The notes under the pieces: model-generated
Databases searched by the model: none
The model's input: only the letters and a program-made list of their open reading frames with translations
Told to the model about the DNA's origin: nothing
DNA from: an uncultured bacterium
Lineage (GTDB): Bacteria > Patescibacteriota > Minisyncoccia > Phycocordibacterales > Phycocordibacteraceae
DNA: 64,000 bases
Reading direction: 5' to 3'
Assembly (NCBI GenBank): GCA_963759775.1
Contig: CAVXAH010000001.1
Span: 464,682-528,681, forward strand
In this document: in pieces, positions 1,068-63,015 of the stretch
How positions within the stretch are numbered: the stretch's first letter is position 1
Layout: each line of letters opens with the position of its first letter
Made by a program: the position numbers and the translations under genes

Positions 1068-1277
1068 ATTCGCGAGGCTCATAACCTCGAGATGGCCGTG
1101 CAAGTCGGCCCCCCGCAACTAGAAGCAAAAGCCTGGCGTAAAGCGAGGCTTTTGCATTACATAGTTGCGGGGGAGGAAAGCGCCCCCCACAACGCGGTTG
1201 TGCCGCCAGGAACCTTATACACCCAAGTCCCTTGCGCAAATACTTCCTGGAGAGACAATTAAAGTGCCAGCTCTAGT
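1068..1277 (+). promoter_or_regulatory. Structured leader or candidate small RNA upstream of the receiver-only regulator
   Basis: GGGGTAGAGT -10-like box at about 1051-1060. Hairpins: cgagg/cctcg, ggcc/ggcc, and a long one ccccgcaacta...gcaaaagcct-loop-aggcttttgc...tagttgcgggg (about 1110-1172). The alternative pairing ggggg(1168-1172)/ccccc(1183-1188) competes with the long hairpin. Confidence 0.3.
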
Positions 1278-2841: not shown

Positions 2842-3438
2842 TTATATAAGTGGACTGCACAGTTCTCGAAGTCGCGCGATGCCGCGATGAATACGTACCG
2901 ACGCCACATTTTCTGATACTTGAAGGACCGCGGCGATTTCCTTCGGGGATAAATCGTCAATATAGCGGAGGGTTACGGCTTCGCGAAGTGTTTCGGGAAG
3001 TTGTGGAATCAAGCTACGAATCTTCTCAACAAGAAGAGCATCACTCAATTGCCCCTCCTTCTCATTTCGACTACCCACTAAAAGAAGTTCGCTCGCTGCT
3101 ACCGGATTGTTTTCAGTGAGGGTATCAAGTGACTCCTCTTTCGCTTTTCGGTACTCATCAATAATGAGATTGTTGAGAATTCGGTAGAGAAAGCTTTTAT
3201 GGCTTCGGATTTCTCCTCCGGTCCGCGCGTATTCCCACGCCTTAAGGAATGTTTCTTGAGTGAGGTCCGCGGCACGTTCTCGGCCCGAAAGACGAAAGGA
3301 CGCATGTCGGAATAAAGCGTCGGCATGCGCATCAAACGCTTCAAGAAACGCTTGCTCAAAGGAAGTTGACATGCGAGATATATCCCCTAAACGGGTTGCC
3401 TCTATCATACTCCTTGCATACATAGGTAGTGCTTGCAT
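2842..3438 (-). CDS. ECF-type RNA polymerase sigma-70 family factor
   Basis: Region 2 (DLTQETFLKAWEY...FLYRILNNLIIDEYRK) and region 4 (LPETLREAVTLRYIDDLSPKEIAAVLQVSENVASVRIHRGIARLRE). The likely true start is ATG 3372 (MSTSFEQ), which has an AGGGGA Shine-Dalgarno upstream. Confidence 0.85.
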   Translation of the reverse strand: MQALPMYARSMIEATRLGDISRMSTSFEQAFLEAFDAHADALFRHASFRLSGRERAADLTQETFLKAWEYARTGGEIRSHKSFLYRILNNLIIDEYRKAKEESLDTLTENNPVAASELLLVGSRNEKEGQLSDALLVEKIRSLIPQLPETLREAVTLRYIDDLSPKEIAAVLQVSENVASVRIHRGIARLRELCSPLI

Positions 3439-5574: not shown

Positions 5575-6151
5575 CTATAACGTTGCTAAAGGACTCGTAG
5601 TTGAAGTCCCACAAGTGCGTTAAAAGATCTTCTCGGTTTACCACTTCGTTTGGGTGTCGAAGAAAATACTCAAGGAGTCCAAATTCTTTGAGCGTGAGCG
5701 AAATAGGTTCTCCGTCTTTATGAACCGTATGCTCTGCCGCACTAAGTTCAATGGTGCCGACCCGAATAGTTTCCGGAAGCGCATCGTGTGGGCGGCGCAT
5801 GAGCGCCTGGATGCGTGCAACCAATTCCTCAAACGCGAACGGCTTAACGAGGTAGTCGTCCGCACCGGAAAGAAGAAGTTGTACTTTGGTTTCCGTTTCA
5901 GCCCGCGCCGTGAGCACCAGGATAGGGGTAACGATGTTGCGGGCACGCATCTCGCGACAAATGGCGTAGCCATCAAGTGAAGGGAGCATAAGGTCAAGAA
6001 TCACCAAATCGTAGTCCTTGTGATGGAGCGAGATTCTGGTAAGTGCCTTTTCCCCATCATCAATCGTGTCAACCGCAAACCCCTTCGCCGCAAGGCCACG
6101 TGAAATGACGTCAGCAAGCTTCTTTTCGTCTTCTACGAGTAATATGCGCAT
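5477..6151 (-). CDS. OmpR-family response regulator
   Basis: MRILLVEDEKKLADVI...DLVILDLMLP...LVLTA...YLVKPF receiver, plus a winged-helix C-terminus (LTLKEFGLLEYFLRHPNEVVNRE...VRGIGYRLRA). The start is set at MRILLVEDE. Confidence 0.9.
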   Translation of the reverse strand: MRILLVEDEKKLADVISRGLAAKGFAVDTIDDGEKALTRISLHHKDYDLVILDLMLPSLDGYAICREMRARNIVTPILVLTARAETETKVQLLLSGADDYLVKPFAFEELVARIQALMRRPHDALPETIRVGTIELSAAEHTVHKDGEPISLTLKEFGLLEYFLRHPNEVVNREDLLTHLWDFNYESFSNVIDVHVKNLRRKLDPNNSEGVLETVRGIGYRLRA

Positions 6152-6294
6152 GGTGTCCTTAATTAGTATACCCCTCAAGTATAGAGGGAAGGGCAGTGAA
6201 GACTTCATGAAGAGCTTCATCTTTGAAGGCGTACATAAGGAGGATTTATTACCTAAACAGGCAATTTCCCATAAATGCCCGTGAAAACGTCTTG

Positions 6295-6368
6295 TGTCGA
6301 GGGTGGGAGTCGAACCCACGACCTTAGCGTTATGAATGCTACGCTCTTACCAACTGAGCTACCCCGAC
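6295..6368 (-). tRNA. tRNA with CAT anticodon (elongator Met or Ile2; not initiator-like)
   Basis: Reverse complement GTCGGGGTAGCTCAGTTGGTAAGAGCGTAGCATTCATAACGCTAAGGTCGTGGGTTCGACTCCCACCCTCGACA folds as a cloverleaf. Anticodon loop TTCATAA. G1-C72 is paired. Confidence 0.9.
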
Positions 6369-6414
6369 AAGTGAGGAAAGAGATGAACGTCCTCGTTTAT
6401 ATCTTCCGAACGCC

Positions 6415-6440
6415 GTTGGGGCAAGCCTACTTACCCCGAC
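6415..6440 (-). other. Acceptor-stem mimic hairpin in the tRNA(CAT) leader
   Basis: Minus-strand CTTGTCGGGGTAAGTAGGCTTGCCCCAAC. Its first 12 nt are identical to the -3..+9 region of the tRNA that starts 72 nt downstream. Confidence 0.5.
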
Positions 6441-6564
6441 AAGCGGACACTAAGAAAACTAGCATATTTTCTTGTACGAACGAACTAGAGTACAGTCCCA
6501 CCTATCAGCACACGACATTTTTGAGGGTTTTTGGTAGGATGGCCCATACCTGCAAAGGTAGGTT

Positions 6565-6595
6565 GCGGGAGTAAGTCCTACGGGCTTGCTCCCGC
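6565..6595 (+). other. Acceptor-stem mimic hairpin in the tRNA-Asp leader
   Basis: TTGCGGGAGTAAGTCCTACGGGCTTGCTCCCGC. 11 nt (TTGCGGGAGTA) are identical to the tRNA-Asp 5' end 84 nt downstream. The hairpin stem is 7 bp. Confidence 0.5.
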
Positions 6596-6648
6596 TGCAT
6601 TCGGTCGGACAAGAAAAGAGAACAGCCTTTTCTTGTCCTCCCTCATTT

Positions 6649-6722
6649 GCGGGAGTAGCTCAATTGGTTAGAGCGCGTCCCTGTCACGGACGAGGCTGCG
6701 GGTTCAAGTCCCGTCTCTCGCG
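6649..6722 (+). tRNA. tRNA-Asp (GTC)
   Basis: GCGGGAGTAGCTCAATTGGTTAGAGCGCGTCCCTGTCACGGACGAGGCTGCGGGTTCAAGTCCCGTCTCTCGCG. Anticodon loop CTGTCAC. Confidence 0.92.
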
Positions 6723-6726
6723 CAAG

Positions 6727-6758
6727 ACACAAAACCCCGTGAGGGGTTTTGTGCTTTA
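6727..6758 (+). terminator. Intrinsic terminator after tRNA-Asp
   Basis: acacaaaacccc-gtga-ggggttttgtg followed by cttt. Confidence 0.6.
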
Positions 6759-6924
6759 GCGAGAGAAGCAGGCGGAGCTTGCGTCGGGACTTGAACGGCT
6801 TGACGATGATTTCCGAGCACGGAAATCCGTCGAGCCATGGCCGAGCGGAGCGCCGAGTGACGACGAGGCGCGAGCGCTTGGCCAAGCCCGTCTCTCGCCC
6901 ATCTATCTGCTATCATGTTTCTTT

Positions 6925-7266
6925 ATGGACGGATTTCATCACTTACGAGGACGTGCCCGGCTTCCAAGTCGTCTCGGGGAACACCTCGAGCCATTTCCCG
7001 CGGAGAGTTTTTTCAAGAAGAATCTCGACTACCTTATGTACGGTGTCGGGATTCTGGCCCCGTTCGCACTTCTCCCTCAAATCATTCAGATTTATTCTAC
7101 GCAAAGCGCCTCGGGTCTCTCACTCGTTACATGGTCCTTGCTCGTCACGTTCAACCTATTATGGGCAACGTACGGGTTTGCTCACAAGGAAGCGCACATT
7201 CTTCTCGCAAACGCGTTCATGGCGCTTTTTAACCTCACTATCGTAATCGGAATTTTGATGTATTGA
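6925..7266 (+). CDS. SemiSWEET / PQ-loop small sugar-transporter family protein (3 TM)
   Basis: PQ motif LLPQIIQIYSTQSASGLSL plus two further TM helices. The true start may be ATG 7036 (MYGVGILAPF). Confidence 0.6.
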   Translation: MDGFHHLRGRARLPSRLGEHLEPFPAESFFKKNLDYLMYGVGILAPFALLPQIIQIYSTQSASGLSLVTWSLLVTFNLLWATYGFAHKEAHILLANAFMALFNLTIVIGILMY

Positions 7267-7271
7267 CCCGG

Positions 7272-7640
7272 TTAGGAGCGGCCGTATCTGTCCTCAAGCC
7301 GAGTAATATCTTTCTCGTCAAAATCGCCAAACGCAATTTCAAGAAATATAAGGCGATCGTCTTTGCATTCAACTCGATGTTGCATACCCGCTTTTATGAA
7401 AAATGAGTCCCCAACCTTGGCTTCCTTGGTAGTGTCTCCAGCCGTTACGAGACCGCTTCCCGTAAGCACATACCAAAACTCATCTCGGTGCGTATGAGTT
7501 TGTAAGCTGAACGCTTGACCGGCATTCACCGTGATCATTTTAACCGTCGTCTTTTCGTTCAAGGTAAAACGTTCAAAAGTACCCCACGGGCGTGTTTCTT
7601 TGTCGTGAGAACTGAGTCCTTCCATAGGGGAAGTATACAA
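7272..7640 (-). CDS. Cupin-domain protein, type II phosphomannose isomerase-like
   Basis: RPWGTFERF...VKMITVNAGQAFSLQTHTHRDEFWYVLTGSG...MQHRVEC...ITRLEDRYGR is the classic ManC C-terminal cupin signature. Confidence 0.8.
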   Translation of the reverse strand: MYTSPMEGLSSHDKETRPWGTFERFTLNEKTTVKMITVNAGQAFSLQTHTHRDEFWYVLTGSGLVTAGDTTKEAKVGDSFFIKAGMQHRVECKDDRLIFLEIAFGDFDEKDITRLEDRYGRS

Positions 7641-7798
7641 GATTTTTTAAACAGGATTGAAAAGCGTGGAGAAATAACGTACTCTCGGGGAGTCGAACGA
7701 AATCGCCGCTGTAAGCTTTTCCTCTCGGATTCGGAAAAGCTTTCCTCGGGCTCGTTCGGCGCTCAAGAATGTACCAACACATTCTTGATGCCTCACTC

Positions 7799-8051
7799 GC
7801 CGATGTAGCTCAGTTGGTAGAGCAACTCCATGGTGGGCCGCAAGCCCTGCCCACGAAATCTGCAAGGAATTCGTGAATCCTGAATTACGGTCAATAGCTC
7901 CACAAGCCAAGACCGTGGCGCAACGTGCGCCCGAACGACTGACAAAGGTACCCCTCGCGGGTAAAGATACAGTCTAGCCCTTCTCTTCGTGGTTAGAGAG
8001 AGAAGGTGTAAGCGAAGGAGTAGGTCCCCAGTTCAATTCTGGGCATCGGCT
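7799..8051 (+). tRNA. tRNA-Thr (GGT) interrupted by a group I intron between positions 36 and 37
   Basis: 5' exon 7799-7834 GCCGATGTAGCTCAGTTGGTAGAGCAACTCCATGGT. 3' exon 8015-8051 AAGGAGTAGGTCCCCAGTTCAATTCTGGGCATCGGCT. The spliced product is a perfect 73-nt cloverleaf with anticodon loop ATGGTAA. Confidence 0.8.
7835..8014 (+). ncRNA. Group I (IC3-like) self-splicing intron, 180 nt, no internal ORF
   Basis: The 5' exon ends in U and the intron ends in G (gtaagcG|AA). A P1-like pairing GGU|GGGC with GCCC(U)GCC is possible. The AAGATACAGTCTAG core resembles the AGAUAUAGUC of cyanobacterial tRNA-Leu introns. A GAAGGTGTA 3' segment resembles the Azoarcus tRNA-Ile intron. Confidence 0.7.
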
Positions 8052-8135
8052 CAAGTTTCAAACATACTATCGTTTATCAACAGCCGACCACTTTACGGAA
8101 CCGTGAACGGTCTCCATTTGCGGTAGCATTGTTGT

Positions 8136-8591
8136 ATGCCAATCCCAAAGAAACCACGCACACCATGTCTTGCGTGTGGGAAGGAGCCATATAGATCATT
8201 TTATAAATATTGCAGTAATGTGTGCCAGCAGGAATTTCAATATCTTGCATATCTCAACCGCTGGAAGGCCGGGAAAGAAAACGGATTAAACGCGATGGGA
8301 ATAGTATCTGATCCTGTCAAAAGGTATCTTCGCAAAAAGTACGATAATAAATGTTGTCTTTGTGGATGGTCAAAAGCCAATCTTAAAACAGGCGTAGTTC
8401 CATTGGTTGCCGATCATATTGATGGTAATTGGCGAAACAATGTTGAAGAAAATCTGCGCCTCCTCTGTCCAAACTGCGATGCATTGACTCCAACCTTTTC
8501 AGCCCTTAACAGGGGGAACGGAAGACCAAGTCGAGCAATAAGCAAAAGAACTCTCGAAGCTCGTGTTCTCGCGCAAAGCAAGCGGTCGTGA
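8136..8591 (+). CDS. HNH endonuclease with an N-terminal Cys-rich region
   Basis: HNH core DHIDGNWRNNVEENLRLLCPNCD, plus CLACGK...YCSNVCQ and CCLCGW Cys clusters. TAGCAT -10 box 6 nt upstream of the ATG. Confidence 0.85.
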   Translation: MPIPKKPRTPCLACGKEPYRSFYKYCSNVCQQEFQYLAYLNRWKAGKENGLNAMGIVSDPVKRYLRKKYDNKCCLCGWSKANLKTGVVPLVADHIDGNWRNNVEENLRLLCPNCDALTPTFSALNRGNGRPSRAISKRTLEARVLAQSKRS

Positions 8592-8613
8592 TAATTTATC
8601 TGCACAATTAGTG

Positions 8614-8686
8614 GCCGCCCTAGCTCAGTTGGTAGAGCACGTCATTCGTAATGACGGGGTCCCGAGTTCAATCCTCGGGGGCGGCT
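8614..8686 (+). tRNA. tRNA-Thr (CGT)
   Basis: GCCGCCCTAGCTCAGTTGGTAGAGCACGTCATTCGTAATGACGGGGTCCCGAGTTCAATCCTCGGGGGCGGCT. Anticodon loop TTCGTAA. Confidence 0.92.
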
Positions 8687-8693
8687 CAAAAAT

Positions 8694-9386
8694 ATGGAAA
8701 TTACAACAACAAACACTCTAGATGAAGTAGCGTCCCGGCGCGAAGGGCGCCGCGATGCATTCAAGAATCTTGCTTTTATTTTGATTGCCGTTGGGGCGGC
8801 ATATGTTGTCACGGTTTCAATCGGTGTTGAGGGGCTTCAGCATTTAGTGGAAAGGGCGGGCGTGTGGGGCTTGGTCGCCGTCATTCTCCTCAAGATGACG
8901 ACCATCATTGTGGTGCCGCTCTCGGGTGGTCCTATATACGCAATTGCAGGTGCGGCGTTTGGTTTTTGGCAGGGACTCGGTATCACATTTATCGGCGACG
9001 TGCTTGGTTTTTCTGTCGCATTCTACCTGAGCCGTTTCTTTGGAAGGCCAATTATTAATGTGTTTGTGCCACAGTCACAGTCTGCTTTTATAGAGAAAAT
9101 GCTCATTCAGGGCTCTGAGCTCAAATCATTCCTCAAGGCACGTCTCGCATTTACAGGCTTTCCTGAAGTCTTTGCATACGCGGCAGGCCTTACCAAGGTT
9201 TCATTTCCGGTTTTCATAGCTGCTCAAATGGCGCTCCACACACCAGTTACGGCTCTCGTAGTCTTGTTTGGAAATGCACTCCTCACCGGCAACCCATTGT
9301 TCTTTGCTACTGCGGCCGTTGCCGCTATTCTCCTTGCGGTAGTCGGCGGGTGGTGGTTTAAGCGCGACCTTACGCAGGAAGCCTAA
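8694..9386 (+). CDS. TVP38/TMEM64 (DedA/VTT-domain) family membrane protein
   Basis: VPLSGGPIYAIAGAAFGFWQGLGITFIGDVLGFSVAFYLSRFFGRP is the VTT-domain signature. Polytopic membrane protein. Confidence 0.8.
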   Translation: MEITTTNTLDEVASRREGRRDAFKNLAFILIAVGAAYVVTVSIGVEGLQHLVERAGVWGLVAVILLKMTTIIVVPLSGGPIYAIAGAAFGFWQGLGITFIGDVLGFSVAFYLSRFFGRPIINVFVPQSQSAFIEKMLIQGSELKSFLKARLAFTGFPEVFAYAAGLTKVSFPVFIAAQMALHTPVTALVVLFGNALLTGNPLFFATAAVAAILLAVVGGWWFKRDLTQEA

Positions 9387-12178: not shown

Positions 12179-13831
12179 ATGGCGTCGAAAGGACACAAAT
12201 ACATATTCGTTCTCGGAGGTGTGATGAGCGGTGTCGGCAAGGGTGTAGCGGCTTCTTCTATAGGTCTCCTGCTTCAGGAGAAGGGATATCCGGTCAACTT
12301 GGTAAAGATTGACCCGTATTTAAATGTGGACGCGGGGACCATGAACCCGACCGAACACGGAGAGGTCTTCGTGCTCCAGTCTGGGCTTGAGACCGACCAA
12401 GACATGGGCAACTATGAGCGATTCCTCAATCGCGATCTCACAAATGAGGACTATATGACTTCCGGTATGGTGTACCAGTCGGTTATTGAAAGAGAGCGCG
12501 CGCTTCACTACAAAGGCAAGTGCGTGGAGGCTATCCCGCACGTGCGGGACGAAATCCTTCGCCGGATTGATGCCGCGGCTACCTACAACGGTAGCCGCGT
12601 TTCCGTTATTGAGGTCGGCGGCACAATAGGCGACTTCCAAAACGCACTTTTCATTGAGGCGGCACGCGTTCTCAAGATGAAGCATCCAGACGACGTACTC
12701 TTTATGATGGTGTCGTACCTTCCGGTGCCGGGCACCTTGGGTGAAATGAAGACGAAGCCCACCCAATCAGCGGTGCGCGCCTTGAACTCATACGGCGTCC
12801 AGCCGGACTTCATCATTGCGCGTTCAAAGCATCCTATGGACGAGAAGCGCAAAGAAAAGCTCGCTATTTGGTGCAATGTGCGCGCCGATCACATTATTTC
12901 CGCTCCCGACGTGGGGAGCATTTACGAAGTCCCTGTCAACTTTGAGAAAGACGGGCTCGCGGGCATTCTTCTCAAAGCACTCAATTTAACCTCTAAGAAA
13001 TCCGCAGGGCTTTCTGCGTGGAAGAAGTTTGTACGAGCTGTGCAAAATAAGAAAGCGCCAGAGATTTCCGTTGCCGTGGTTGGTAAATATTTTGATACGG
13101 GAGACTTCGTGCTTTCCGATGCATATCTTTCGGTCATTGAGGCGATTAAGTTTTCCGCCGCGGCAATCGGCAAGCAGGCAAAAATCACGTGGGTGAATGC
13201 TAAAGACTTTGAAAAAGGAAAACCAGTTTCAATGTTGGGAGAGTTTGATGGCATCCTTGTCCCGGGCGGTTTTGGTGAGACGGGTATTGAAGGGAAGATC
13301 AAAGCGATTGAGTACGCACGCACGCACCAGATTCCGTACTTCGGACTTTGCTACGGCATGCAGCTCATGGTCGTGGAATACGCGCGCCACGTTGCAAAGC
13401 TCAAAGGTGCTCATACCAGTGAGATTGCAAGTGGCTCGCCGCACCCAGTGGTGGCGGTGATGGAAGACCAGAAAGAGAAGATAGAGAAAGAGAAGTATGG
13501 CGGCACGATGCGCCTTGGGGTGTACCCGTGCCGCCTTAAAAAGGGAAGCATTGCGCGCGAAGCGTACAAGAAAGAGAGCGTCGAGGAACGCCATCGCCAT
13601 CGCTACGAGATAAATCCAAAATACATTCCTCAGCTTGAAAAAGCGGGTCTCGTTTTCTCCGGCACCTCCCCGAGCGGTGTGCTTATGGAAATAGCCGAGC
13701 TTCCAAAGTCCGCACATCCTTTTATGCTCGGTACGCAGTTCCACCCCGAGCTTCGAGCACGCCCCCTTGCCCCGCATCCGTTGTTTACTGAATTCCTCAA
13801 AGCCGCCGCCCTCCAAAAGAAAAAGAAATAG
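12179..13831 (+). CDS. pyrG: CTP synthase
   Basis: N-terminus KYIFVLGGVMSGVGKG, glutamine amidotransferase domain GILVPGGFG...PYFGLCYGMQ...QFHPE. ATG 12179 is preferred over the upstream GTG 12170. Confidence 0.92.
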   Translation: MASKGHKYIFVLGGVMSGVGKGVAASSIGLLLQEKGYPVNLVKIDPYLNVDAGTMNPTEHGEVFVLQSGLETDQDMGNYERFLNRDLTNEDYMTSGMVYQSVIERERALHYKGKCVEAIPHVRDEILRRIDAAATYNGSRVSVIEVGGTIGDFQNALFIEAARVLKMKHPDDVLFMMVSYLPVPGTLGEMKTKPTQSAVRALNSYGVQPDFIIARSKHPMDEKRKEKLAIWCNVRADHIISAPDVGSIYEVPVNFEKDGLAGILLKALNLTSKKSAGLSAWKKFVRAVQNKKAPEISVAVVGKYFDTGDFVLSDAYLSVIEAIKFSAAAIGKQAKITWVNAKDFEKGKPVSMLGEFDGILVPGGFGETGIEGKIKAIEYARTHQIPYFGLCYGMQLMVVEYARHVAKLKGAHTSEIASGSPHPVVAVMEDQKEKIEKEKYGGTMRLGVYPCRLKKGSIAREAYKKESVEERHRHRYEINPKYIPQLEKAGLVFSGTSPSGVLMEIAELPKSAHPFMLGTQFHPELRARPLAPHPLFTEFLKAAALQKKKK

Positions 13832-14685: not shown

Positions 14686-14770
14686 CAGTCTAGTTTAGTA
14701 TCGAAGGACCGGGTCTGCATCTTGTGATAAACGTATTGGTTACTGATGGCCAGTCAAGGGCGACCGAGAC

Positions 14771-14793
14771 GGTTCGAATCCCCAGCAGGCGGC
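14771..14793 (+). repeat. Degenerate copy of a tRNA T-arm/acceptor 3' segment (tRNA-Gln-like); not a foldable tRNA
   Basis: GGTTCGAATCCCCAGCAGGCGGC versus the tRNA-Gln GGTTCGAGTCCCTGGCTGGCAGC. No complementary 5' acceptor strand was found. Confidence 0.45.
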
Positions 14794-14808
14794 GGGTGCC
14801 AACTCGTG

Positions 14809-50337: not shown

Positions 50338-51360
50338 ATGTCACACAAAAACGATAAGCTCTGCATTCTCACGGGCGATGATGTTGGGAAAATTATTTCT
50401 GGCAAAGAGAATCGCATCATTGAGATTATTCGGGATGCGTATATTTCACATCAAAAAGGTGACAGCACCTTACCTCATTCTACGTTTCTTCGTTTCCCAG
50501 ATAAGGCAAAAGATAGAATTATCGGTCTACCCGCATACATTCAGGGCGCAGCAGGCATTAAATGGATCGCCTCATTTCCAGAGAACGTTAAACACGGTAT
50601 TGATCGTGCTTCGGCAGCCATTATCTTAAATTCCCTTGAAACGGGTCGCCCGTACGGAATTCTTGAAGGATCGATCATAAGTGCAAAGAGAACCGCGGCA
50701 AGTGCCGCGCTTGCTGCAAAAGTGCTTGCGGGCAATAGAACGATTGAAGACGTGAGTCTCATTGGGTGCGGGTTGATTAATTTCGAGATTCTAAAATTTC
50801 TCGTCTCACAGTTCAAAAATATTAAAGCGGTAAACATATTTGACCTCGATACAGAAAAAGCGAAAAAGTTTCTTTCAAAAACGGTTGAAATCGTTGATGC
50901 CGACGTTCGCATATGTGATAGTGCCGCAGAAGCATACGGGTCATCAAAACTCGTATCTTTTGCCACAACGGCATCTGTACCACATGTGAATGACACGGAC
51001 CTCTTTAGGGGGGATGCGATCATCCTCCATCTCTCCCTACGTGACTTAGGTGTGGGTATCATTAAAAACAGCATTAACGTTGTTGATGATCTCGATCATG
51101 TGAACCGAGAGCATACGAGTATTCATCTTGCTTCTCAAGAAACAGGGGCAACGAACTTTGTCACCACTTCTCTCGGGGAACTTCTGCTTGGAGTCAAACA
51201 GGCCCCCGAGTCCGGCAAACCCGTTATTTTTTCTCCGTTTGGCCTTGGGGTTCTCGATATACAATTGGCACGATTTGTATACGAAGAAGCTGCCAAGGAA
51301 GGAATGGGGACTGTAGTTAAAGATTTCATTCCGTCGAGCTGGCTCGAGAGACCTTACTAA
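50338..51360 (+). CDS. sbnB: SbnB-like NAD-dependent dehydrogenase (ornithine cyclodeaminase/mu-crystallin family)
   Basis: GIKWIASFPEN...RASAAIILNSLETGRP...SAKRTAASAALAAK...LIGCGLIN... is collinear with SbnB (GIKWIGS, RASGVIILND, SSMRTAAVS, IIGCGLIG). It starts 3 nt after sbnA. Confidence 0.75.
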   Translation: MSHKNDKLCILTGDDVGKIISGKENRIIEIIRDAYISHQKGDSTLPHSTFLRFPDKAKDRIIGLPAYIQGAAGIKWIASFPENVKHGIDRASAAIILNSLETGRPYGILEGSIISAKRTAASAALAAKVLAGNRTIEDVSLIGCGLINFEILKFLVSQFKNIKAVNIFDLDTEKAKKFLSKTVEIVDADVRICDSAAEAYGSSKLVSFATTASVPHVNDTDLFRGDAIILHLSLRDLGVGIIKNSINVVDDLDHVNREHTSIHLASQETGATNFVTTSLGELLLGVKQAPESGKPVIFSPFGLGVLDIQLARFVYEEAAKEGMGTVVKDFIPSSWLERPY

Positions 51361-57933: not shown

Positions 57934-58780
57934 ACAAAATAAAATACTAGCCTCTCGACAGGCTTTCAGCGATTACGTATATACGCCAATTACAGAAGCA
58001 GTTAAGCTTTTGAAAGAAAGAAGGGAAGACAAGAAACTTTGTAAAAAAATAGAAGAACACGTTAGAAGTGTCTATGGAGAAATGCCAAATACGTTTCAGG
58101 GCGAAGGCGTTGCGGTTCTTTGTCGGCAAGCCACTCCAAACTATGAGCAGCTACGCTTCTTGAGTTTTGCCGACCTAATGGATCTTCAGCCGGTATTTTG
58201 GGAGTATCAAGATGATAAATTTGTATCAGGTAATCTTGGCAAGCATCGGCTAGGGCATCTTGGGTTTCATTATGGTTTTGGAAAAAGTGGAGAATCAAAA
58301 ACGGAGTATATGAAAGTCATCGATTTTTCAAAGGAAGATGGTAAGAAAATATCTCAAGTGAAAACATTGTGGGGCCAGGATTTGATGAATTTTCATCACG
58401 AACTTTTTTCGATTCAAAGTCCTTCACTTAACCAACAAGATGTTTTTATCGATGGCTCGACTTGGTTTAAGAGAAATGGAGTAAATGTAAATGATTCTTA
58501 CGCTGCAATGCTTACTATGTTTTTGACTCACGGTATTCTCTTTGAAAATTTTCTTCTTGATGGTCGCGAACTCGAGTTTTCTCGAAATGTTTTTCTCCCC
58601 GCGTTTGTTGCGGTGGAAGAAATATTTGGTTGTAAGCCACTGATTGTTCCACTTGATCCAATTGATGTTGAAGGTGAAGAGTTCTGGTTCTGCTACCCAC
58701 CATCTCTTAAGAAGAGTGTTAGTGAAAAAATGGAAAATAAGCTCATAATAAATACAAAAAACGTATGGCAGACTCACTAA
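57875..58780 (+). CDS. Hypothetical protein (no recognised domain); start uncertain (57875 or ATG 57920)
   Basis: Long ORF with coding-like composition. It overlaps the neighbouring genes at both ends by a few codons. Confidence 0.5.
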   Translation: MMNPTEIRVQSISVPMKESEQNKILASRQAFSDYVYTPITEAVKLLKERREDKKLCKKIEEHVRSVYGEMPNTFQGEGVAVLCRQATPNYEQLRFLSFADLMDLQPVFWEYQDDKFVSGNLGKHRLGHLGFHYGFGKSGESKTEYMKVIDFSKEDGKKISQVKTLWGQDLMNFHHELFSIQSPSLNQQDVFIDGSTWFKRNGVNVNDSYAAMLTMFLTHGILFENFLLDGRELEFSRNVFLPAFVAVEEIFGCKPLIVPLDPIDVEGEEFWFCYPPSLKKSVSEKMENKLIINTKNVWQTH

Positions 58781-60387
58781 TAAACAGCTGTTCTTTGTTG
58801 CAGCTTGAGACGGGGACCACTCCGATTGCGTTGTATTCTCACCTTGTACCTATTGCGGTCTTCTTGATAGTAGGAGGCTTTGTCTTCTTCCGCTCAAGAG
58901 AAAACAAATTAAAGGGGATTTTCTCATTATTCGTTGGTACATTTGCACTTTGGCTTGTTGGAGATCTTATTACGTGGGTGTCGGCAAACTACTACACAAT
59001 ATACGCATTTTGGGCAACACTTGATTTTCTTGAGGTAGCTTTCTTTGTGCTCGGTACCTATTTTGCCGCACTGCTTGTGTATGGTCAGAAACTACCGATT
59101 GCACTAAGAGTCTTTTTCCCTGTAGTTCTACTGGCGCCTCTAGTTATCACCCTCACAGGGCAGTCCACACACGAGTTTAACTATGCGGTGTGTGAATCGT
59201 TTGAGAATGAGTCGCTTACGCACTACAAGCTTTATTCCGAGGTAGCCCTACTCCTACTCCTTGTTTTTCTCGGTTCGCGCATACCTAAACTATCTCTCCC
59301 GCACAAAGGTCCTCTATACGCAATCGTTGCGTCCCTCTTCCTCTTTTTGGGCACGTTCTCATTAAGTTCGTATCTCGCGTCAGTTACTTACTACTACGAA
59401 TTCTTGTTCTATGGTCTTCTTGCACTGCCAGCCTTCTTCATCGTTCTCGTGTACTCCATCACAAACTTCGAACTTTTCCGAGTGCAGGCTTTTGGAGTTC
59501 AGGTTTTGATCTATCTCATCCTCATCCTTGTTTCGGCCCAATACCTATTTGTCACCTCAACGACAAATAAAGTCCTCGTGGGAATAACACTTCTCCTGAC
59601 GGGAGTGTTTGGATACCTTTTTCAGCAAAGTGCGATTCGCGAGATAAAACTTCGCGAGCAGACTGAAAGACTTGCTGCAGACTTGGAAGAGACCAATAAA
59701 CGGCAGGAGACACTTATGCACTTCGTGGGACATGAGGTTAAAGGGTTTCTCACGAAGGCGCAGGGAGCATTTGCTTCGCTTTCGGAAGGGGATTATGGGC
59801 AACTTTCAGACGGCATGAAGCCGCTCGTCACTCAGGCGCTTGCCGAAACACGTACGGGAGTTGAGTCTGTAACGGCGCTTCTCAAGGCTTCAAACCAAAA
59901 GAAGGGAACTATTTCATACCAAATGACTCTGCTTGATCTCTGTGCTCTTACTAAAGAACAAGTTGAAAAGGCGCGACCGGCGGCAGAGAAGAAAGGTCTC
60001 AAGCTCACCTTTAGCTATGAGAGCACACGCGCAACATGCACCATGACGGGCGACAAAGCGGAACTTGGCGACCACGTGCTTCGGAACCTGATAGACAACG
60101 CGGTTGCGTATACCCCCTCCGGCTCAATTGATGTATCCCTCAAGAGAACAAACGGTCACTACGTATTTGCGGTAAAAGACACCGGCGTTGGCATTACGGA
60201 CGAAGACAAGAAGCGACTCTTTACCGAAGGCGGTCACGGCAAGGACTCACAGAAAATAAACGTGCACTCAACCGGCTACGGTCTTTTCATCGCCAAGAAT
60301 ATTGTGGAAGCCCATCACGGTACTATCCGCGCCGAGTCTGAAGGACAAGGGAAGGGCACGACCTTCATCGTTGAGCTGCCTGCCTAA
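58765..60387 (+). CDS. Sensor histidine kinase with an N-terminal ~7-8 TM domain (paralog 1)
   Basis: FVGHEVKGFLTKAQGAF (H-box), [61 protein letters not shown]. Confidence 0.9.
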   Translation: MADSLINSCSLLQLETGTTPIALYSHLVPIAVFLIVGGFVFFRSRENKLKGIFSLFVGTFALWLVGDLITWVSANYYTIYAFWATLDFLEVAFFVLGTYFAALLVYGQKLPIALRVFFPVVLLAPLVITLTGQSTHEFNYAVCESFENESLTHYKLYSEVALLLLLVFLGSRIPKLSLPHKGPLYAIVASLFLFLGTFSLSSYLASVTYYYEFLFYGLLALPAFFIVLVYSITNFELFRVQAFGVQVLIYLILILVSAQYLFVTSTTNKVLVGITLLLTGVFGYLFQQSAIREIKLREQTERLAADLEETNKRQETLMHFVGHEVKGFLTKAQGAFASLSEGDYGQLSDGMKPLVTQALAETRTGVESVTALLKASNQKKGTISYQMTLLDLCALTKEQVEKARPAAEKKGLKLTFSYESTRATCTMTGDKAELGDHVLRNLIDNAVAYTPSGSIDVSLKRTNGHYVFAVKDTGVGITDEDKKRLFTEGGHGKDSQKINVHSTGYGLFIAKNIVEAHHGTIRAESEGQGKGTTFIVELPA

Positions 60388-60451
60388 AGAAAGTTCCACC
60401 TCGACCCCAGTCGGGGTGGTGGGCGCCGACCTGCACGTCAGTATCGGGGTA

Positions 60452-60494
60452 TTGACACCCACCCGAAGAGGAGTAATATTGATGCATATTACTC
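60452..60494 (+). promoter_or_regulatory. Toxin-antitoxin promoter with an overlapping inverted-repeat operator
   Basis: TTGACA (60452-60457), 16-nt spacer, TAATAT (60474-60479). The inverted repeat gagtaatat / atattactc (60471-60479 / 60486-60494) overlaps the -10 box. Confidence 0.6.
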
Positions 60495-60507
60495 AATATA
60501 CATTACC

Positions 60508-60744
60508 ATGACTAAGAAAATGCCTATTTCAAAAGCGAGAGTGAATCTCGGTGCAGTCGTGTCCGGTGTCCGTGACAAAGGAGACGTGGTCGTTTTGGAG
60601 AAAGACGGCATTCCCGTTGCCTCTTTGGTTGGCGTCGACATGGTGGAAGATTTGCGCGATGCCATCGATCTTGCTGCCGCTCGGCTCTCGGCGCACAAAG
60701 AAGCGCTCGTCGACTGGGCGGACGTACGAGCACGCTATGTATAG
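60508..60744 (+). CDS. Phd/YefM-family antitoxin
   Basis: MPISKARVNLGAVVSGVRDKGDVVVLEKDGIPVASLV is the Phd/YefM N-terminal fold. 8-nt overlap with the toxin gene. Confidence 0.8.
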   Translation: MTKKMPISKARVNLGAVVSGVRDKGDVVVLEKDGIPVASLVGVDMVEDLRDAIDLAAARLSAHKEALVDWADVRARYV

Positions 60745-60985
60745 GGTGTTCCTCAAGGTGTCGGCACGAAAAGCACTCGATTCCATACCCGCAAAAGCAA
60801 GAAAACACATCGCGCATGCCATTGATGAGCTTGGTGCTCTTGGCATTCACGCTCCGCACACCAAGAAGCTCCAGCCGCCGATTGGCGGATACCGCACGCG
60901 CGTAGGAGACTACCGTATTCTTTTTGACAGGGATGAAGATCTCATCGTGATTCATCGCATTGCCAAGCGCTCTGACGCATATTAG
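60737..60985 (+). CDS. RelE/ParE-family toxin
   Basis: MYRVFLKVSARKALDSIPAKARKHIAHAIDEL...GGYRTRVGDYRILFDRDEDLIVIHRIAKRSDAY is the classic RelE/ParE pattern. Confidence 0.8.
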   Translation: MYRVFLKVSARKALDSIPAKARKHIAHAIDELGALGIHAPHTKKLQPPIGGYRTRVGDYRILFDRDEDLIVIHRIAKRSDAY

Positions 60986-60989
60986 AAAG

Positions 60990-61223
60990 AGTTCACCAAA
61001 AATTCGCAAAAGATAAACGTACACTCCACCGGCTACGGGACGTGAGTGAGGTAACACCAACAACTGGTATGTTGTTGGTGTTCGCCGAACGAACGTGCCG
61101 TATCGTAATCGATACGGCCTCTTCATCGCCAAGAATATTGTGGAAGCTCACCATGGCACCATTCGCGCCGAGTCCGAAGGGCAAGGGAAGGGCACGGCCT
61201 TCATCGTTGAGCTTCCAGCATAA
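60990..61223 (+). pseudogene. Remnant of a histidine-kinase 3' end (HATPase G2 box to stop), interrupted by a ~78-nt hairpin-rich insert
   Basis: Encodes ..FT(KN)SQKINVHSTGYG | insert 61040-61117 | [34 protein letters not shown]. It is near-identical to 60210-60387 at the nucleotide level and has no upstream kinase body. Confidence 0.8.
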
Positions 61224-61254
61224 CCACTGCTTCGCGGTGGTAGACTAGAACCCA

Positions 61255-63015
61255 ATGCCAGGTGCATCCAAGTGGGCCCATTTCAAAGAGGTTTTTCTTT
61301 TTTGGTCTGATCGTTTGCTTGATATTTTCATTTTTGGCGTCTTTACGCTTGCCGTTTTCGCCGCGCCAGCCGTGAGCGTGTATCAGTATTTTCGTCAGGT
61401 GGTGCCACAAGGATGCACTCCGCTTCTTGGCGTCGGTGGGGAAGACCTACATGCCGTTGCGTACTACGTACACATAGTGCCCATCATGGTGCTTCTCTTG
61501 GTGGCAGGCTTCATCCTCGTTTCTTCACACGAAGGCAGAACAAAGAGAATATTTGCATTATTTGTAGGCGCCTTTTCGCTCTGGCTTGTTGGCGACCTCA
61601 TCACCTGGGTTTCGGGAAACGAGGCGGCACTCTACGCGGCGCAGACGACACTCAGTTTTCTTGAGATAGCCTTTTTTGTCCTCGGCGCATATTTTGCCGC
61701 ACTGCTTCTCTATGGCGGACGCGTACCCACATTCCTTCGACTTCTGTTTCCGCTCATCCTTCTTGCGCCTCTCCTGGTCATATTTAACGGCAATCTGACT
61801 TCCGGATTCTTCCATGGGCTCTGCAATCCCTTCGGGCACGGCATCCTCGCCGCGTATCCGCTTTATGCAGAGGTCATCATCTTGGGGCTTCTCGCGTATT
61901 TCTGGGCGCGCGTTCCGTACTCCACGTTTCCCTCAAAACCCCTCTACGCAATCATCGCCTCGCTCTTTATGTTTCTCGGTACCTTTGCGATAGGCTCGTT
62001 CGTCGTGTGGCTCACTTCCCATCACGAGTTCCTTTTTTACGGATTGCTTGCCCTCCCTGTGTTTCTCATTGTTCTTGTGTATTCAATAACGAACCTTGAG
62101 CTCTTCCGCGTACAGTCGTTTGGTATACAGGTTTTGATTTATCTTATTCTGCTTCTCATCTCGGCCCAGTTCCTTTTCGTGGACTCTCTTAAGGACCAGC
62201 TTTTGATAGGCATTACGCTTGTTTTCACCGCGATTTTCGGCTATCTCTTCCAGCAAAGTGCGCTTCGCGAGGTCGTACAGCGCCACAAAATAGAAGTGCT
62301 TGCCGGAGACTTAAAAGACACCAATCAGCGTCAGGAGTCACTCATTCACTTCGTGGGGCACGAAGTGAAAGGGTTCCTCACGAAGGACCAAGGAGCTTTC
62401 GCAGAGCTCGCCGAAGGCGACTTAGGCCCGCTCCCACAAGGAGCGAAGTCATTTGCGGAAACGGCGCTCTCGGGTACCCGCGATGCCGTACGCTCTATCA
62501 GCGACATTCTTGCCGCTTCCAACCTGAAAAAAGGCACAACGACGTTTCAAATGGTGGCGTTTGATCTGAAAAAAGTAATTGCCGAGGCGGTTGAAAAGGC
62601 CCAAGGGATGGCGAAACAGAAGGGACTTGCGCTTTCATTTGCCGTTCCAGACTTGGTTTCGCCCTACCTGCTTCAGGGCGACCCAGGACAGCTCGGCGAT
62701 CACGTATTTCGCAATATAATAGAAAACGCAATTAACTACACACCATCAGGCTTTGTGCAGACATCTCTCAAAAAAGAAGAAAGCAAATATGTCTTTACGG
62801 TGAAAGACACGGGCGTTGGAATCACGGACGAAGATAAAAAGCATCTCTTCACCGAAGGCGGCCACGGCAAGGACTCGCAGAAAATAAACGTGCACTCAAC
62901 CGGCTATGGTCTCTTTATTGCGAAGAACATTGTAGAAGCCCACCGAGGTACTATCCGCGTGGAATCAGAAGGGGAGGGCAAAGGCACCACCTTCATAGTT
63001 GAATTGCCGGTATAG
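61255..63015 (+). CDS. Sensor histidine kinase with an N-terminal ~8 TM domain (paralog 2)
   Basis: Collinear with the 58765-60387 product ([76 protein letters not shown]). Confidence 0.9.
   Translation: MPGASKWAHFKEVFLFWSDRLLDIFIFGVFTLAVFAAPAVSVYQYFRQVVPQGCTPLLGVGGEDLHAVAYYVHIVPIMVLLLVAGFILVSSHEGRTKRIFALFVGAFSLWLVGDLITWVSGNEAALYAAQTTLSFLEIAFFVLGAYFAALLLYGGRVPTFLRLLFPLILLAPLLVIFNGNLTSGFFHGLCNPFGHGILAAYPLYAEVIILGLLAYFWARVPYSTFPSKPLYAIIASLFMFLGTFAIGSFVVWLTSHHEFLFYGLLALPVFLIVLVYSITNLELFRVQSFGIQVLIYLILLLISAQFLFVDSLKDQLLIGITLVFTAIFGYLFQQSALREVVQRHKIEVLAGDLKDTNQRQESLIHFVGHEVKGFLTKDQGAFAELAEGDLGPLPQGAKSFAETALSGTRDAVRSISDILAASNLKKGTTTFQMVAFDLKKVIAEAVEKAQGMAKQKGLALSFAVPDLVSPYLLQGDPGQLGDHVFRNIIENAINYTPSGFVQTSLKKEESKYVFTVKDTGVGITDEDKKHLFTEGGHGKDSQKINVHSTGYGLFIAKNIVEAHRGTIRVESEGEGKGTTFIVELPV

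Follow-up and report, generated by a model that had tools for sequence, protein, structure and literature searches.

Short, non-coding, hairpin-forming repeats are familiar in the form of MITEs, Rickettsia palindromic elements and the Correia/NEMIS, ERIC, BOX and REP/REPIN families, which occur within or beside genes that they do not destroy, are transcribed along with their neighbours and carry fixed terminal inverted repeats or a palindrome in near-identical copies per genome. The IS200/IS605 elements and their miniature, palindrome-associated derivatives carry an imperfect hairpin close to each end, integrate on the 3′ side of a short specific sequence and contain sequence that pairs with the left flank, as in the guide–target pairing of IS608. 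tRNA genes in particular are occupied by group I introns, in whose P1 helix the 5′ exon end pairs with an internal guide, and serve as safe havens for integrative elements (attL/attR), Ty3 and the Dictyostelium TRE, with the gene restored or spared. Here we describe a 65–95-nt cassette, widespread in Patescibacteria (CPR bacteria) and apparently undescribed, that shares features with each of these systems.

The stretch analysed, hereafter the window, is 64 kb of one genome, and three of its six tRNAs carry a cassette. In all three leaders the order is the same: a first hairpin (hp1) made of tRNA nucleotides 1–9, a short tip and the complement of nucleotides 1–7; the linker N-GC-R-UUC; another hairpin (hp2), whose sequence varies; CC-UCAYU-N; and, directly after it, the tRNA. 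A first-pass annotation of the window had reported copies of the acceptor stem before tRNA(CAT), tRNA-Asp and tRNA-Thr(GGU), and all three lie where it placed them. The common layout it described is borne out by alignment of the three leaders and by motif counts, GTAAG..GCTT..TTCGG occurring three times in the window against 0.12 expected from shuffles and TTCGG..CCTCAYT six times against 0.61, except that what it took for an (A/G)TTCGG box followed by a hairpin is one extended hairpin with the base UUC GG...CC UCA. The hairpin before tRNA-Thr(GGU), moreover, is degenerate, its 3′ arm pairing poorly.

The tRNA(CAT) cassette occupies 6369–6440 on the minus strand, as delimited by sequence, fold and a match to covariance model R1 (6360–6440, E=4e-18), and lies immediately 5′ of an intact tRNA(CAT) (6294–6368, minus strand; ARAGORN, and 68 bits to the Rfam tRNA model) with the acceptor GTCGGGG/CCTCGAC, which includes a G5·U pair. 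The GTCGGGG copy at 6434–6440, 72 nt upstream of +1, belongs to the 5′ arm of hp1 (6416–6440; 5′ arm GTCGGGG-TA, tip AGTAGGCTT, 3′ arm G-CCCCAAC with a C3·A mismatch), which is followed by the linker GGCGTTC (6409–6415), hp2 (6375–6408) and TCACTT (6369–6374). On the plus strand, the tRNA-Asp cassette (6565–6648; fold −50.5 kcal/mol, z=−6.6; R1 match at E=3e-16) begins with its GCGGGAG copy at 6565–6571, 84 nt upstream of tRNA-Asp(GTC) (6649–6722, plus strand; acceptor GCGGGAG/CTCTCGC; ARAGORN, Rfam). Its hp1 (6565–6595, GCGGGAG-TA...TG-CTCCCGC) has 14 contiguous pairs, with a G-C pair where the tRNA has G4·U69, and is followed by the linker TGCATTC (6596–6602), hp2 (6603–6642) with the perfect 12-bp stem GGACAAGAAAAG/CTTTTCTTGTCC, and TCATTT (6643–6648). 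A promoter-like box, TTTTTGGTAGGATGG at 6528–6543 on the plus strand (extended −10, TAGGAT at 6535–6540), lies about 24 nt before this hp1. The third cassette (7705–7798, plus strand; sequence, fold and an R1 match at E=2e-10) opens with GCCGCTG at 7705–7711, 94 nt upstream of tRNA-Thr(GGU) and one mismatch away from its GCCGATG; hp1 (7705–7751) runs GCCGCTG-TAAGC, a long tip and the degenerate 3′ arm CCTCGGGC, and then come the linker TCGTTC (7752–7757), hp2 (7758–7792) and TCACTC (7793–7798). The orthologous tRNA-Thr(GGU) cassette in L092 has a compensatory change in hp2.

The arms of hp1 are derived from the target. Among 97 cassette tRNAs with 48 distinct acceptor 7-mers, the tRNA's own 7-mer lies upstream exactly in 69 and with at most one mismatch in 96; when the same 97 were permuted, another tRNA's 7-mer was found exactly in a mean of 0.59 and with at most one mismatch in 13.9. 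The claim that the leader 7-mer tracks tRNA identity thus holds far above chance, and shuffles and permutations together rule out a chance origin of the pattern. Some tips, TAAGCAAAGCTTG among them, are found again at other tRNAs and in other genomes. Inverted and direct copies of the tRNA 3′ strand downstream of CPR tRNAs are not significantly enriched (7 against 5.1 permuted).

Beyond the window, a pattern scan and the covariance model yield more than 100 cassettes in Paceibacteria and Saccharibacteria. The genome pattern scan gave at least 120 loci, of which about 85 among the matches listed are Patescibacteria with the full architecture; roughly 30 pattern matches outside Patescibacteria have neither an acceptor copy nor the hairpins and are attributable to chance, as is a single match on viral contigs, which lies inside coding sequence. 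The 121 matches to R1 fall in 99 loci, and 103 of these matches are immediately followed by a tRNA. The cassette gives a simple taxon-specific marker, and R1 separates Patescibacteria cleanly from other matches. Each of three linker types is present in both Saccharibacteria and Paceibacteria. The first-pass annotation knew of no such leader element, and we likewise found no description in the literature.

Comparison among relatives indicates how the cassette came to lie where it does. In the cassette-free tRNA-Asp orthologues L122 and L063, ATTTTGGTAGGATG is followed by about 25 nt, by GCGGGAGTA and then directly by GCTCAAC; in the window and in L121 and L123, the cassette comes after the first GCGGGAGTA and is followed by a second. 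The promoter-like box of the window precedes tRNA-Asp +1 at the same distance in the aligned L122 and L063, and more generally −10-like boxes end 9–14 nt before tRNA +1 in cassette-free genes and mostly 8–12 nt before hp1 in cassette genes. The tRNA-Thr(GGU) orthologue in L122 likewise lacks a cassette, and cassettes have been gained or lost between relatives whose cupin proteins are 77–87% identical. In this comparison, and in the features described below, the cassette acts like an insert placed between A9 and G10. The hp2 sequence differs completely between copies, even within one genome: those of three orthologous Asp cassettes are unrelated, and so are those of the four cassettes in the window. 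One subtype is shared by tRNA-Thr of the window and tRNA-Met of L094, its arms differing so as to match whichever tRNA it precedes, and tandem arrays are present, with identical units in L034 and four diverged units in L043.

The fourth window cassette is not at a tRNA. It lies on the minus strand at 61040–61118 (R1 match 61034–61121 at E=1e-7; fold z=−5.8), with hp1 at 61097–61118 reading GCCGTATCG ATTA CGATACGGC, then the linker ACGTTCGTTC, an hp2 with a perfect 12-bp stem, CCTCACTC at 61044–61051 and ACGT. Alignment with two intact kinase paralogues shows that it splits a histidine-kinase 3′-end fragment (~60995–61247, plus strand) at CCGTA|GCCGGTGGAG, a tRNA-like site (GTA|GCC), with (G/C)CCGTA repeated on both sides; its arms and its direct repeat, here 5–6 nt rather than 9 nt, are made from kinase sequence. 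A search of metagenomes with a 30-mer from its hp2, aimed at its source, gave no match. Further motif matches at 3259–3289 and 50429–50479, neither of them scored by R1, are coding sequence, as are R1 matches at 12509 and 21434, the latter within a repeat of a 2252-aa ORF. In L080 and L135 an antisense copy sits at a tRNA 3′ end, at the 65|66 junction; its arms copy the tRNA 3′ end and its direct repeat is 9 nt. At tRNA 5′ ends the direct repeat is ~9 nt (+1 to +9, perhaps −2 to +9), and in tRNA-Gln of L092 it reaches ~22 nt. Since neither the kinase-pseudogene copy nor the antisense 3′-end copies could function as leaders, we count them in favour of insertion. Sense-oriented 5′ copies nevertheless exceed all others by more than 50:1. 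In a sample chosen by a pattern requiring TTCGG, CCTCAYT and TAGCTCA, which biases frequencies and site preferences, 98 of 99 cassette tRNAs have a purine at position 7, as against 28 of 41 cassette-free TAGC tRNAs, only 1 of 64 tRNAs without TAGCTCA has a cassette, and occupancy by tRNA ranges from 1/11 for Thr(CGU) to 18/28 for Asp.

On this evidence we consider it probable, though well short of certain, that Patescibacteria tRNA genes are the target of a small non-coding insertion cassette, of which the leader hairpins form the upstream half. It separates nucleotide 9 from nucleotide 10 of the gene as it originally stood, immediately ahead of the D stem and mostly at R7-U8-A9|G10-C11. The original 5′ end, S (~−2 to +9), stays beside its promoter, and after it come a short tip, an inverted copy S′, the extended hairpin L with its conserved sequence (N-GC-R-UUC-GG...CC-UCA-Y-U-N) and S once more in direct orientation, by which the tRNA gene is made whole again; the overall structure is S-tip-S′-L-S-rest. 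Copying of S and S′ from the target as the cassette forms would then be the reason why the leader 7-mer follows the acceptor stem. Presence and absence among relatives, the arrays, the kinase-pseudogene copy and the antisense copies at tRNA 3′ ends all favour the common duplication mechanism that the first-pass annotation had offered beside a tRNA-specific function, which accounts for the covariation less well. The first-pass interpretation is partly supported, and the copying probably reflects cassette formation rather than a proven tRNA-specific function. The triple copy could arise from a ~9-nt staggered break with ordinary fill-in plus one snap-back or strand switch, which is our guess, made by a trans-acting enzyme or through an RNA/cDNA intermediate. 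The whole cassette would be co-transcribed from the original promoter as a 5′ leader, with transcription starts predicted 2–5 nt before hp1, and presumably removed by RNase P. In the 64 kb of the source genome and 8-kb pieces of other genomes that make up our material, we saw no near-identical cassettes at different tRNAs that might form a donor–recipient pair, and identified no enzyme or autonomous element for the cassette; the HNH nuclease at 8136–8591 would be one candidate.

More tentatively, and as a possibility we would not yet favour, the cassette could represent a new class of site-specific element, or a derived host system, that inserts at helix junctions of tRNA genes, regenerates the displaced gene end and writes a target-complementary hairpin, perhaps via an RNA/cDNA step templated by the tRNA end, with the acceptor mimic kept for tuning pre-tRNA folding or processing in organisms with divergent RNase P. 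The base opposite U8 in hp1 is A in only 13 and G in 21 of 58 hairpins, as copying of the modified s4U8 might give.

Set against the known systems, this insertion cassette departs from each. Whereas MITEs and the other small repeats have fixed termini, its sole long inverted repeat is copied from the target, its hp2 differs per copy and it is aimed at one tRNA position; its ends are the tip or S′ and CCUCAYUN, with S′/S changing with the target, and no transposase is linked to it in the window, although a MITE would be expected to have a related autonomous IS. Like IS200/IS605 it has hairpins near both ends, inserts 3′ of a short specific sequence, pairs with its left flank and carries a similar motif after the right-end hairpin (TCAY, against TCAA in IS200/IS605). 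Those elements, however, use 4–5-nt targets, make no target duplication and have the same hairpins in all copies, whereas here a 9-nt target segment is present three times; an IS200/IS605 miniature with fixed-site insertion would account for the R-T-A|G-C preference but not for a target that is duplicated and inverted. It shares tRNA specificity and mobility with group I introns, and hp1, with U8 opposite G in 21/58, resembles their P1 helix; at 65–95 nt, however, it has no catalytic core and no Rfam match, it lies outside the anticodon loop, and the tRNA downstream is complete, so that splicing is not needed. Integrative elements measure kilobases, carry an integrase gene and as a rule duplicate the 3′ part of the tRNA, whereas the cassette repeats lie 72–94 nt apart with no ORF between them, which argues against att-site duplication; Ty3 and TRE insert outside the gene, and neither they nor integrative elements write an inverted target copy. 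An integron attC origin does not fit, the R″/R′ cores (RYYYAAC...GTTRRRY) being absent from most hp1 and L and cassette ORFs lacking, and the motifs of a Xer/dif-like site, a T-loop mimic (GUUCGG) or boxA-type antitermination do not fit the alignment. CCTCAYT could be read as A/GTGAGG of an antisense micro-ORF, yet its spacing to TTCGG varies out of frame (29–36 nt in the window). Among Rfam families, including self-cleaving ribozymes, T-box and tRNA-like RNAs, only tRNAs reach the gathering threshold in the window, and at E≤1 nothing relevant appears over 6000–9000.

The strongest competitor to insertion, which we regard as unlikely but not lightly dismissed, is a functional cis-acting pre-tRNA leader in which hp1 would imitate the acceptor stem as a minihelix and the hairpin L would be recognised by a protein or by RNase P, the selected benefit being processing, control of folding, protection of the 5′ end or action as a decoy; selection would then maintain the covariation, and copies elsewhere would be by-products. 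Several signs of constraint point this way. The UUCGG...CCUCA base of L is invariant across two bacterial classes, between which the linker motifs are also conserved, and its R:Y pair covaries (GC 32, AU 22, 95% paired). Before the tRNA there is A at −4 and U at −1/−2, which fits the known leader preferences of bacterial RNase P. Double changes are frequent in hp1 and hp2 and leave their pairing intact (310 cells, as opposed to 109 in shuffles). In 64 of 82 cases the leader and tRNA 7-mers are the same, whereas the complement of the leader 7-mer is exact in only 29 of 82, and non-Watson–Crick positions in hp1 are under-dispersed, with 17, 53, 9 and 2 hairpins having none, one, two and three; the single mismatch is no mark of age, as it is uncorrelated with hp2 imperfection (rho=0.01). 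The greater conservation of the leader 7-mer than of its complement and the excess of exactly one mismatch lend some support to a functional or harm-avoiding role for hp1; specific forms of such a role, as suggested in the first-pass annotation, would be a decoy or processing minihelix or an alternative pairing. These mismatch counts, together with the sense-strand 5′ bias, the conserved linker and the kept pairing, indicate selection on the transcribed cassette. The geometry of hp1, an acceptor-like stem of 7 bp that is lengthened to ~12 bp and closed by a small loop, with U-rich −1/−2, is that of the acceptor/T-arm minihelices used as substrates of RNase P, RNase Z and the CCA-adding enzyme; those, however, are laboratory substrates, and hp1 lacks a T loop, NCCA and identity pairs such as Ala G3·U70 and usually contains a mismatch. 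Further against a primary leader function stand the patchy distribution, both in the window and across tRNAs such as Thr(CGU) and Asp, the gain and loss between close relatives, the pseudogene and antisense copies, and the lack of a G·U over A·C excess (19:25 in hp1, 15:29 in hp2), which a helix selected as sense-strand RNA should show. Insertion and function can be combined: the leader may be domesticated or even primarily functional, with selection after insertion appearing to preserve pairing between the displaced 7-mer and its complement yet to allow, or to prefer, a single mismatch, plausibly to prevent either extra strand from competing with the real acceptor stem.

Less probable by some distance is that there is no element, and that fork stalling at a D-stem or T-stem hairpin followed by two template switches recurrently produces a micro-scale duplication with inverted triplication of local sequence. 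Formally, S-S′-L-S contains S three times, the middle one inverted, and a duplicated L, the same structure, a tripled segment flanking a duplicated or inserted piece, that is produced by FoSTeS/MMBIR, snap-back synthesis and L1 'twin priming'. Insertion at 9|10 and 65|66 is where a polymerase entering the gene first meets a stem, a degenerate CTCRYTT resembling the end of L often precedes hp1, and the tandem units of L034 are identical. Yet such template-switch rearrangements are sporadic, non-recurrent and eukaryotic, whereas a conserved L module recurs here at hundreds of tRNA genes; L is almost never without hp1 (1/97) and is not the native leader of any cassette-free gene examined; it is conserved at unrelated loci, including the kinase pseudogene, where there is no local L to duplicate; and tips are shared by different tRNAs and genomes. 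Decayed tandem tRNA copies of which only the acceptor stem is left, or the scars of integration into tRNA genes by an integrase, are barely credible: in L092 the intact tRNA-Gln gene stands between longer 5′ and 3′ pieces of an older one, L056 has a longer 5′ fragment and a direct copy of the tRNA-Asp 3′ end lies at 6878–6897, but the hp1 3′ arm is the Watson–Crick complement of the 5′ arm, not the tRNA 3′ strand, in 29 of 30 informative positions where the tRNA has G·U (neither Ala G3·U70 nor Asp G4·U69 is kept), remnants of D, anticodon and T arms are absent, which disposes of the decayed copies that the first-pass annotation had named as its refutation, the break is uniformly after nucleotide 9, and neither an integrase nor a kb-scale insert lies between the repeats.

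Should the insertion reading hold, then in a major radiation of bacteria, to which the human-associated Saccharibacteria belong, a large proportion of tRNA genes would be transcribed with a 70–300-nt structured leader that originated as an insertion into the tRNA gene itself, perhaps an obligatory extra processing load, or a control point, for the divergent RNase P of CPR bacteria. As a mobile element it would copy its target both directly and inverted, so that an essential gene is never inactivated, for which we found no close precedent. In the annotation of CPR genomes, 'extra' tRNA-like fragments and long tRNA spacers would be accounted for by hp1 and the arrays.

A second insert is visible in one of the window tRNAs. 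tRNA-Thr(GGU) (7799–8051, plus strand), as read from the sequence, comprises exon 1 (7799–7834) and exon 2 (8015–8051) separated by a 180-nt intron in the anticodon loop (7835–8014), and Rfam called neither the tRNA nor the intron. Default ARAGORN misses the gene and, with introns allowed, reports it at 7799–8052 under a wrong name; group I introns are common in CPR tRNA genes, and this tRNA-Thr(GGU) carries one.

Three tRNA genes of the window, tRNA(CAT) (6294-6368, minus strand) and tRNA-Asp (6649-6722), both found by ARAGORN and Rfam, and tRNA-Thr(GGU) (exons 7799-7834 and 8015-8051, read from the sequence), are preceded by copies of their own acceptor sequence 72, 84 and 94 nt upstream, as the first-pass annotation had claimed, exact for Met and Asp and with one mismatch for Thr. 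The layout it described as common to the three leaders holds on alignment and folding as a single architecture, in which tRNA nucleotides 1-9, a short self-paired tip and the complement of nucleotides 1-7 (together the first hairpin, hp1) are followed by N-(G/T)C-R-UUC, a second hairpin (hp2, whose stem starts with GG and ends with CC), UCA-Y-U-N and tRNA +1. Signature patterns of this cassette occur 3 and 6 times in the window, against 0.12 and 0.61 expected from shuffles. The base of L, the conserved extended hairpin that includes hp2, is invariant (UUCGG/CCUCA) and probably forms a 2x2 UC/UC internal loop closed by a U-A and a covarying R:Y pair; hp2 is rich in purines on its 5' arm and in pyrimidines on its 3' arm. 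In the window, linkers of three types (GCA..CATTT, GCG..CACTT and TCG..CACTC) lie side by side, each type being present in both Saccharibacteria and Paceibacteria. The loop G-AGGA-C is repeated in hp2 loops and some hp1 tips of unrelated cassettes (loci L015, L020, L053, L062, L063, L069, L091, L098 and L120 of other genomes, and window 6385-6392), the remaining hp2 loops being mostly G-CAAG-C, G-CTAG-C or A-TAAA-T.

Scanning one genome per species for the exact pattern TTCGG N15-45 CCTCAYT N8 TAGCTCA gave at least 120 loci. About 85 of the 120 matches listed are Patescibacteria, nearly all with a full cassette, and they span Paceibacterota/Parcubacteria, Kaiser-, Nomura-, Adler-, Zambryski-, Colwell- and Lloydbacteria, and Saccharibacteria including Nanosyncoccus; the listed matches outside Patescibacteria show neither hairpins nor copy and serve as an internal negative control. 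Typical cassettes also precede tRNAs on three contigs labelled 'uncultured Gammaproteobacteria' (L065, L067 and L077), which are probably Patescibacteria placed in wrong bins. That the leader 7-mer changes with the identity of the tRNA is borne out: among the matches listed, 97 cassette tRNAs with 48 different acceptor 7-mers carry their own 7-mer exactly in 69 cases and with at most one mismatch in 96, against means of 0.59 and 13.9 in permuted-7-mer controls. R1, a covariance model built from 58 leaders (alignment A3), recovers all four window cassettes and, among the loci listed, yields 121 hits over 99 loci; 103 hits lie directly before an ARAGORN tRNA and the rest mostly at array-internal units, contig ends or intron-containing tRNAs. 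Pairing holds in 85.7% of A3 cells versus 64% in shuffles, with 310 versus 109 cells altered on both sides, and falls to 43-57% when registers are slid. Two loci depart from the usual setting: in L113 (2344-2500) the place of the tRNA after the cassette is taken by a mini-hairpin, CCTTTG-TAGCTCAGGTG-CAAAGG, and a terminator, and in L044 (6409-6520) a degenerate cassette, its arms like the downstream GTTGCTATAAT, lies just upstream of the TATAAT box of a protein-coding gene.

The best-supported reading is that of a tRNA-gene-specific cassette that copies its target and has been inserted at A9|G10 of the gene. Relatives were obtained through a neighbouring cupin protein (87, 78 and 77% identity for L121, L123 and L122, respectively). 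All tRNA-Asp genes have a promoter box, ATTTTGGTAGGATG, and about 25 nt later GCGGGAGTA; in L122 and the more distant L063 this stretch runs directly into GCTCAACTGG with no cassette, whereas in the window, L121 and L123 a first GCGGGAGTA is followed by the cassette and then by a second GCGGGAGTA (alignment A4). The tRNA-Thr(GGU) cassette is absent in L122 and present in the window, L092, L053 and L024. Across the data set, cassette-free genes have the end of strong -10-like boxes 9-14 nt upstream of tRNA +1; in cassette genes the boxes mostly end 8-12 nt upstream of hp1, a spacing that puts the 5' arm of hp1 at the original tRNA start; the cassette is thus very probably transcribed from the original promoter. 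The hp2 sequences of the three orthologous Asp cassettes are unrelated. Arrays contain 2-4 units, identical to each other in L034 and divergent in L043, L093, L047, L029 and L089, with degenerate remnants farther upstream, which suggests that new units arise beside the intact tRNA while older ones are displaced outward and decay. One subtype (tip TAAG-NTTTTC..GGATTCG..GAAAAN-CTTK, linker CTCGTTCGGCGC and a similar hp2) stands at tRNA-Thr in the window and at tRNA-Met in L094 with its arms swapped to match each tRNA, and the tip TAAGCAAAGCTTG is common to different tRNAs within L116 and within L086.

Cassettes precede 96 of 139 tRNAs with U8-A9-G10-C11-U-C-A and 1 of 64 others, a figure biased by the search pattern; unselected neighbouring tRNAs follow the same trend. 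A purine occupies position 7 in 98 of 99 tRNAs with a cassette and in 28 of 41 TAGC tRNAs without one. Two antisense copies lie at tRNA 3' ends, in each case at the junction of T stem and acceptor strand (65|66); R1 scores the one in L080 (tRNA-Phe) at E=6e-4, and the one in L135 has exact linker motifs. Their arms copy 9 nt, which comprise the complement of the 3' acceptor strand, the discriminator and a further base. Such copies are rare, since only 1 of 22 metagenome hits to this arrangement was genuine. At both insertion points, 9|10 and 65|66, a single acceptor strand meets the first cloverleaf stem.

The fourth window cassette, a match to the second signature pattern (61045-61089, minus strand; R1 61034-61121, E=1e-7), has no tRNA and sits in a remnant of the 3' end of a histidine-kinase gene. 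In alignment with two intact paralogues, the kinase frame ..HSTGYG|LFIAKN.. is broken at CCGTA|GCCGG with (G/C)CCGTA on either side, and hp1 reads GCCGTATCG ATTA CGATACGGC, kinase sequence and its complement; the unit can therefore enter new DNA and build its first hairpin from the local site. The target as read in cassette orientation, CCCGTA|GCCGGTGGAG, is tRNA-like (compare ..GTA|GCTCAGTTGGTAGAG of the 5' acceptor/D-arm region). The region 58765-63015 is bounded by paralogous membrane histidine kinases at 58765-60387 and 61255-63015; two small ORFs between them (60508-60744 and about 60741-60985) resemble a toxin-antitoxin pair, and the cassette-bearing fragment lies there too.

Among the other readings, the functional link proposed in the first-pass annotation is only partly supported; on the best-supported reading, the cassette has come to be a part of the pre-tRNA leader that is, at a minimum, tolerated and under constraint. 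It places A at -4 and U at -1/-2 before the tRNA, as in a good RNase P leader. The leader 7-mer (X) equals that of the tRNA in 64 of 82 cases, its complement (X') is exact in only 29 of 82, and where leader and tRNA differ the complement usually still fits the tRNA. Non-Watson-Crick pairs in the 7-bp hp1 stem number 0, 1, 2 and 3 in 17, 53, 9 and 2 hairpins, a spread much narrower than a Poisson of the same mean, the counts being uncorrelated with the condition of hp2 (rho=0.01); opposite U8 stands G in 21, A in 13 and no partner in 24 of 58. Neither hairpin shows a preference for G.U over A.C, which counts against simple RNA-helix selection. Since X' is complementary to the 5' acceptor strand of its own tRNA and the extra X to the 3' strand, each would be potentially harmful, and keeping the two paired to each other, imperfectly, may neutralise both.

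For the target-copying cassette, the product has the structure S-tip-S'-L-S (S, target-derived end; S', its inverted copy), with three copies of equal extent within an event. S measures about 9 nt at the ends of tRNAs; in the kinase copy its length is 5-6 nt, with 10 nt for S'/S, and at tRNA-Gln of L092 it reaches about 22 nt. We hypothesize a staggered break whose single-stranded overhangs would be filled once normally and once after snap-back or strand switch; templated insertions and inverted triplications of other systems are comparable outcomes. Candidates for the agent are a nuclease or transposase dedicated to the process, a reverse transcriptase that uses the tRNA or its precursor, and accidents of replication at D/T-stem hairpins. 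The conservation of L and its arrival at the kinase pseudogene argue for a real mobile module rather than pure replication error. A decayed tandem tRNA is out: at acceptor G.U positions (e.g. Asp G4.U69, Ala G3.U70) the 3' arm of hp1 is the Watson-Crick complement of the 5' arm in 29 of 30 cases, not tRNA 3'-strand bases, so that it was copied from that arm or selected to pair with it, and the cassettes hold no remnants of D, anticodon or T arms.

Full-text literature searches returned no description of such tRNA leaders or elements. The RNase P RNAs of CPR bacteria are divergent, about two thirds lacking the CCA-binding UGG, and their tRNAs often contain group I introns (PMC8172020); these findings are context for the cassettes, not an explanation. 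The 180-nt intron of tRNA-Thr(GGU) (7835-8014), in the anticodon loop after nucleotide 36, contains a group-I-like AAAGATACAGTCTAG motif and gave no Rfam Intron_gpI match even at E<=10; the gene was missed by ARAGORN at default settings. L094 has a similarly interrupted tRNA-Thr(GGU), and ARAGORN introns of about 200 nt occur in tRNA-Asp (L004) and tRNA-Met (L014). Between tRNA-Thr(GGU) and tRNA-Thr(CGU) lies a 151-aa ORF with CxxC pairs (8136-8591, plus strand), a position at which L122 and L123 have an ORF as well. The window ORF matches HNH_3 weakly (E=7e-4, short of the Pfam cutoff) and is possibly a homing or nicking endonuclease.

Other sequences beside window tRNAs (ARAGORN and Rfam also give fMet at 1048, Thr-CGU at 8614 and Gln at 14615) carry copies of tRNA ends. 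Downstream of tRNA-Asp and its terminator (6730-6753) lies a very stable 140-nt cloverleaf-like structure (6757-6897, plus strand; -84 kcal/mol, z=-6.7), in whose outer 8-bp stem, GCGAGAGA/TCTCTCGC, the tRNA-Asp 3' end is copied once inverted and once directly, A-U taking the place of the tRNA's G.U; homologues with arms matching the local tRNA follow tRNA-Leu(UAA) in L030 and tRNA-Asp in L049, and none follows tRNA-Asp in L121-L123. After the initiator tRNA (1048-1119), the stretch 1125-1193 (plus strand) holds a terminator hairpin and then GTTGCGGGGG aggaaagcg CCCCCCACAAC (1165-1193), an inverted then direct copy of the tRNA 3' end CCCCCGCAAC that mirrors the 5' cassette layout without TTCGG/CCTCAYT motifs; across 203 CPR tRNAs this pattern is not enriched (7 versus 5.1 in controls). 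Relative to L024, an insertion of about 110 nt in the window (14687-14795) separates the tRNA-Gln 3' end from CCAACTCGTGCTAGG and ends in the tRNA 3'-half-like GGTTCGAATCCCC... In L092 (about 120-580), the 5' fragment (nucleotides 1-24 plus a 31-nt hairpin insert) and 3' fragment (nucleotides 32-72) of an older tRNA-Gln copy flank an intact tRNA-Gln, an arrangement that looks like a newer gene copy lodged inside the older.
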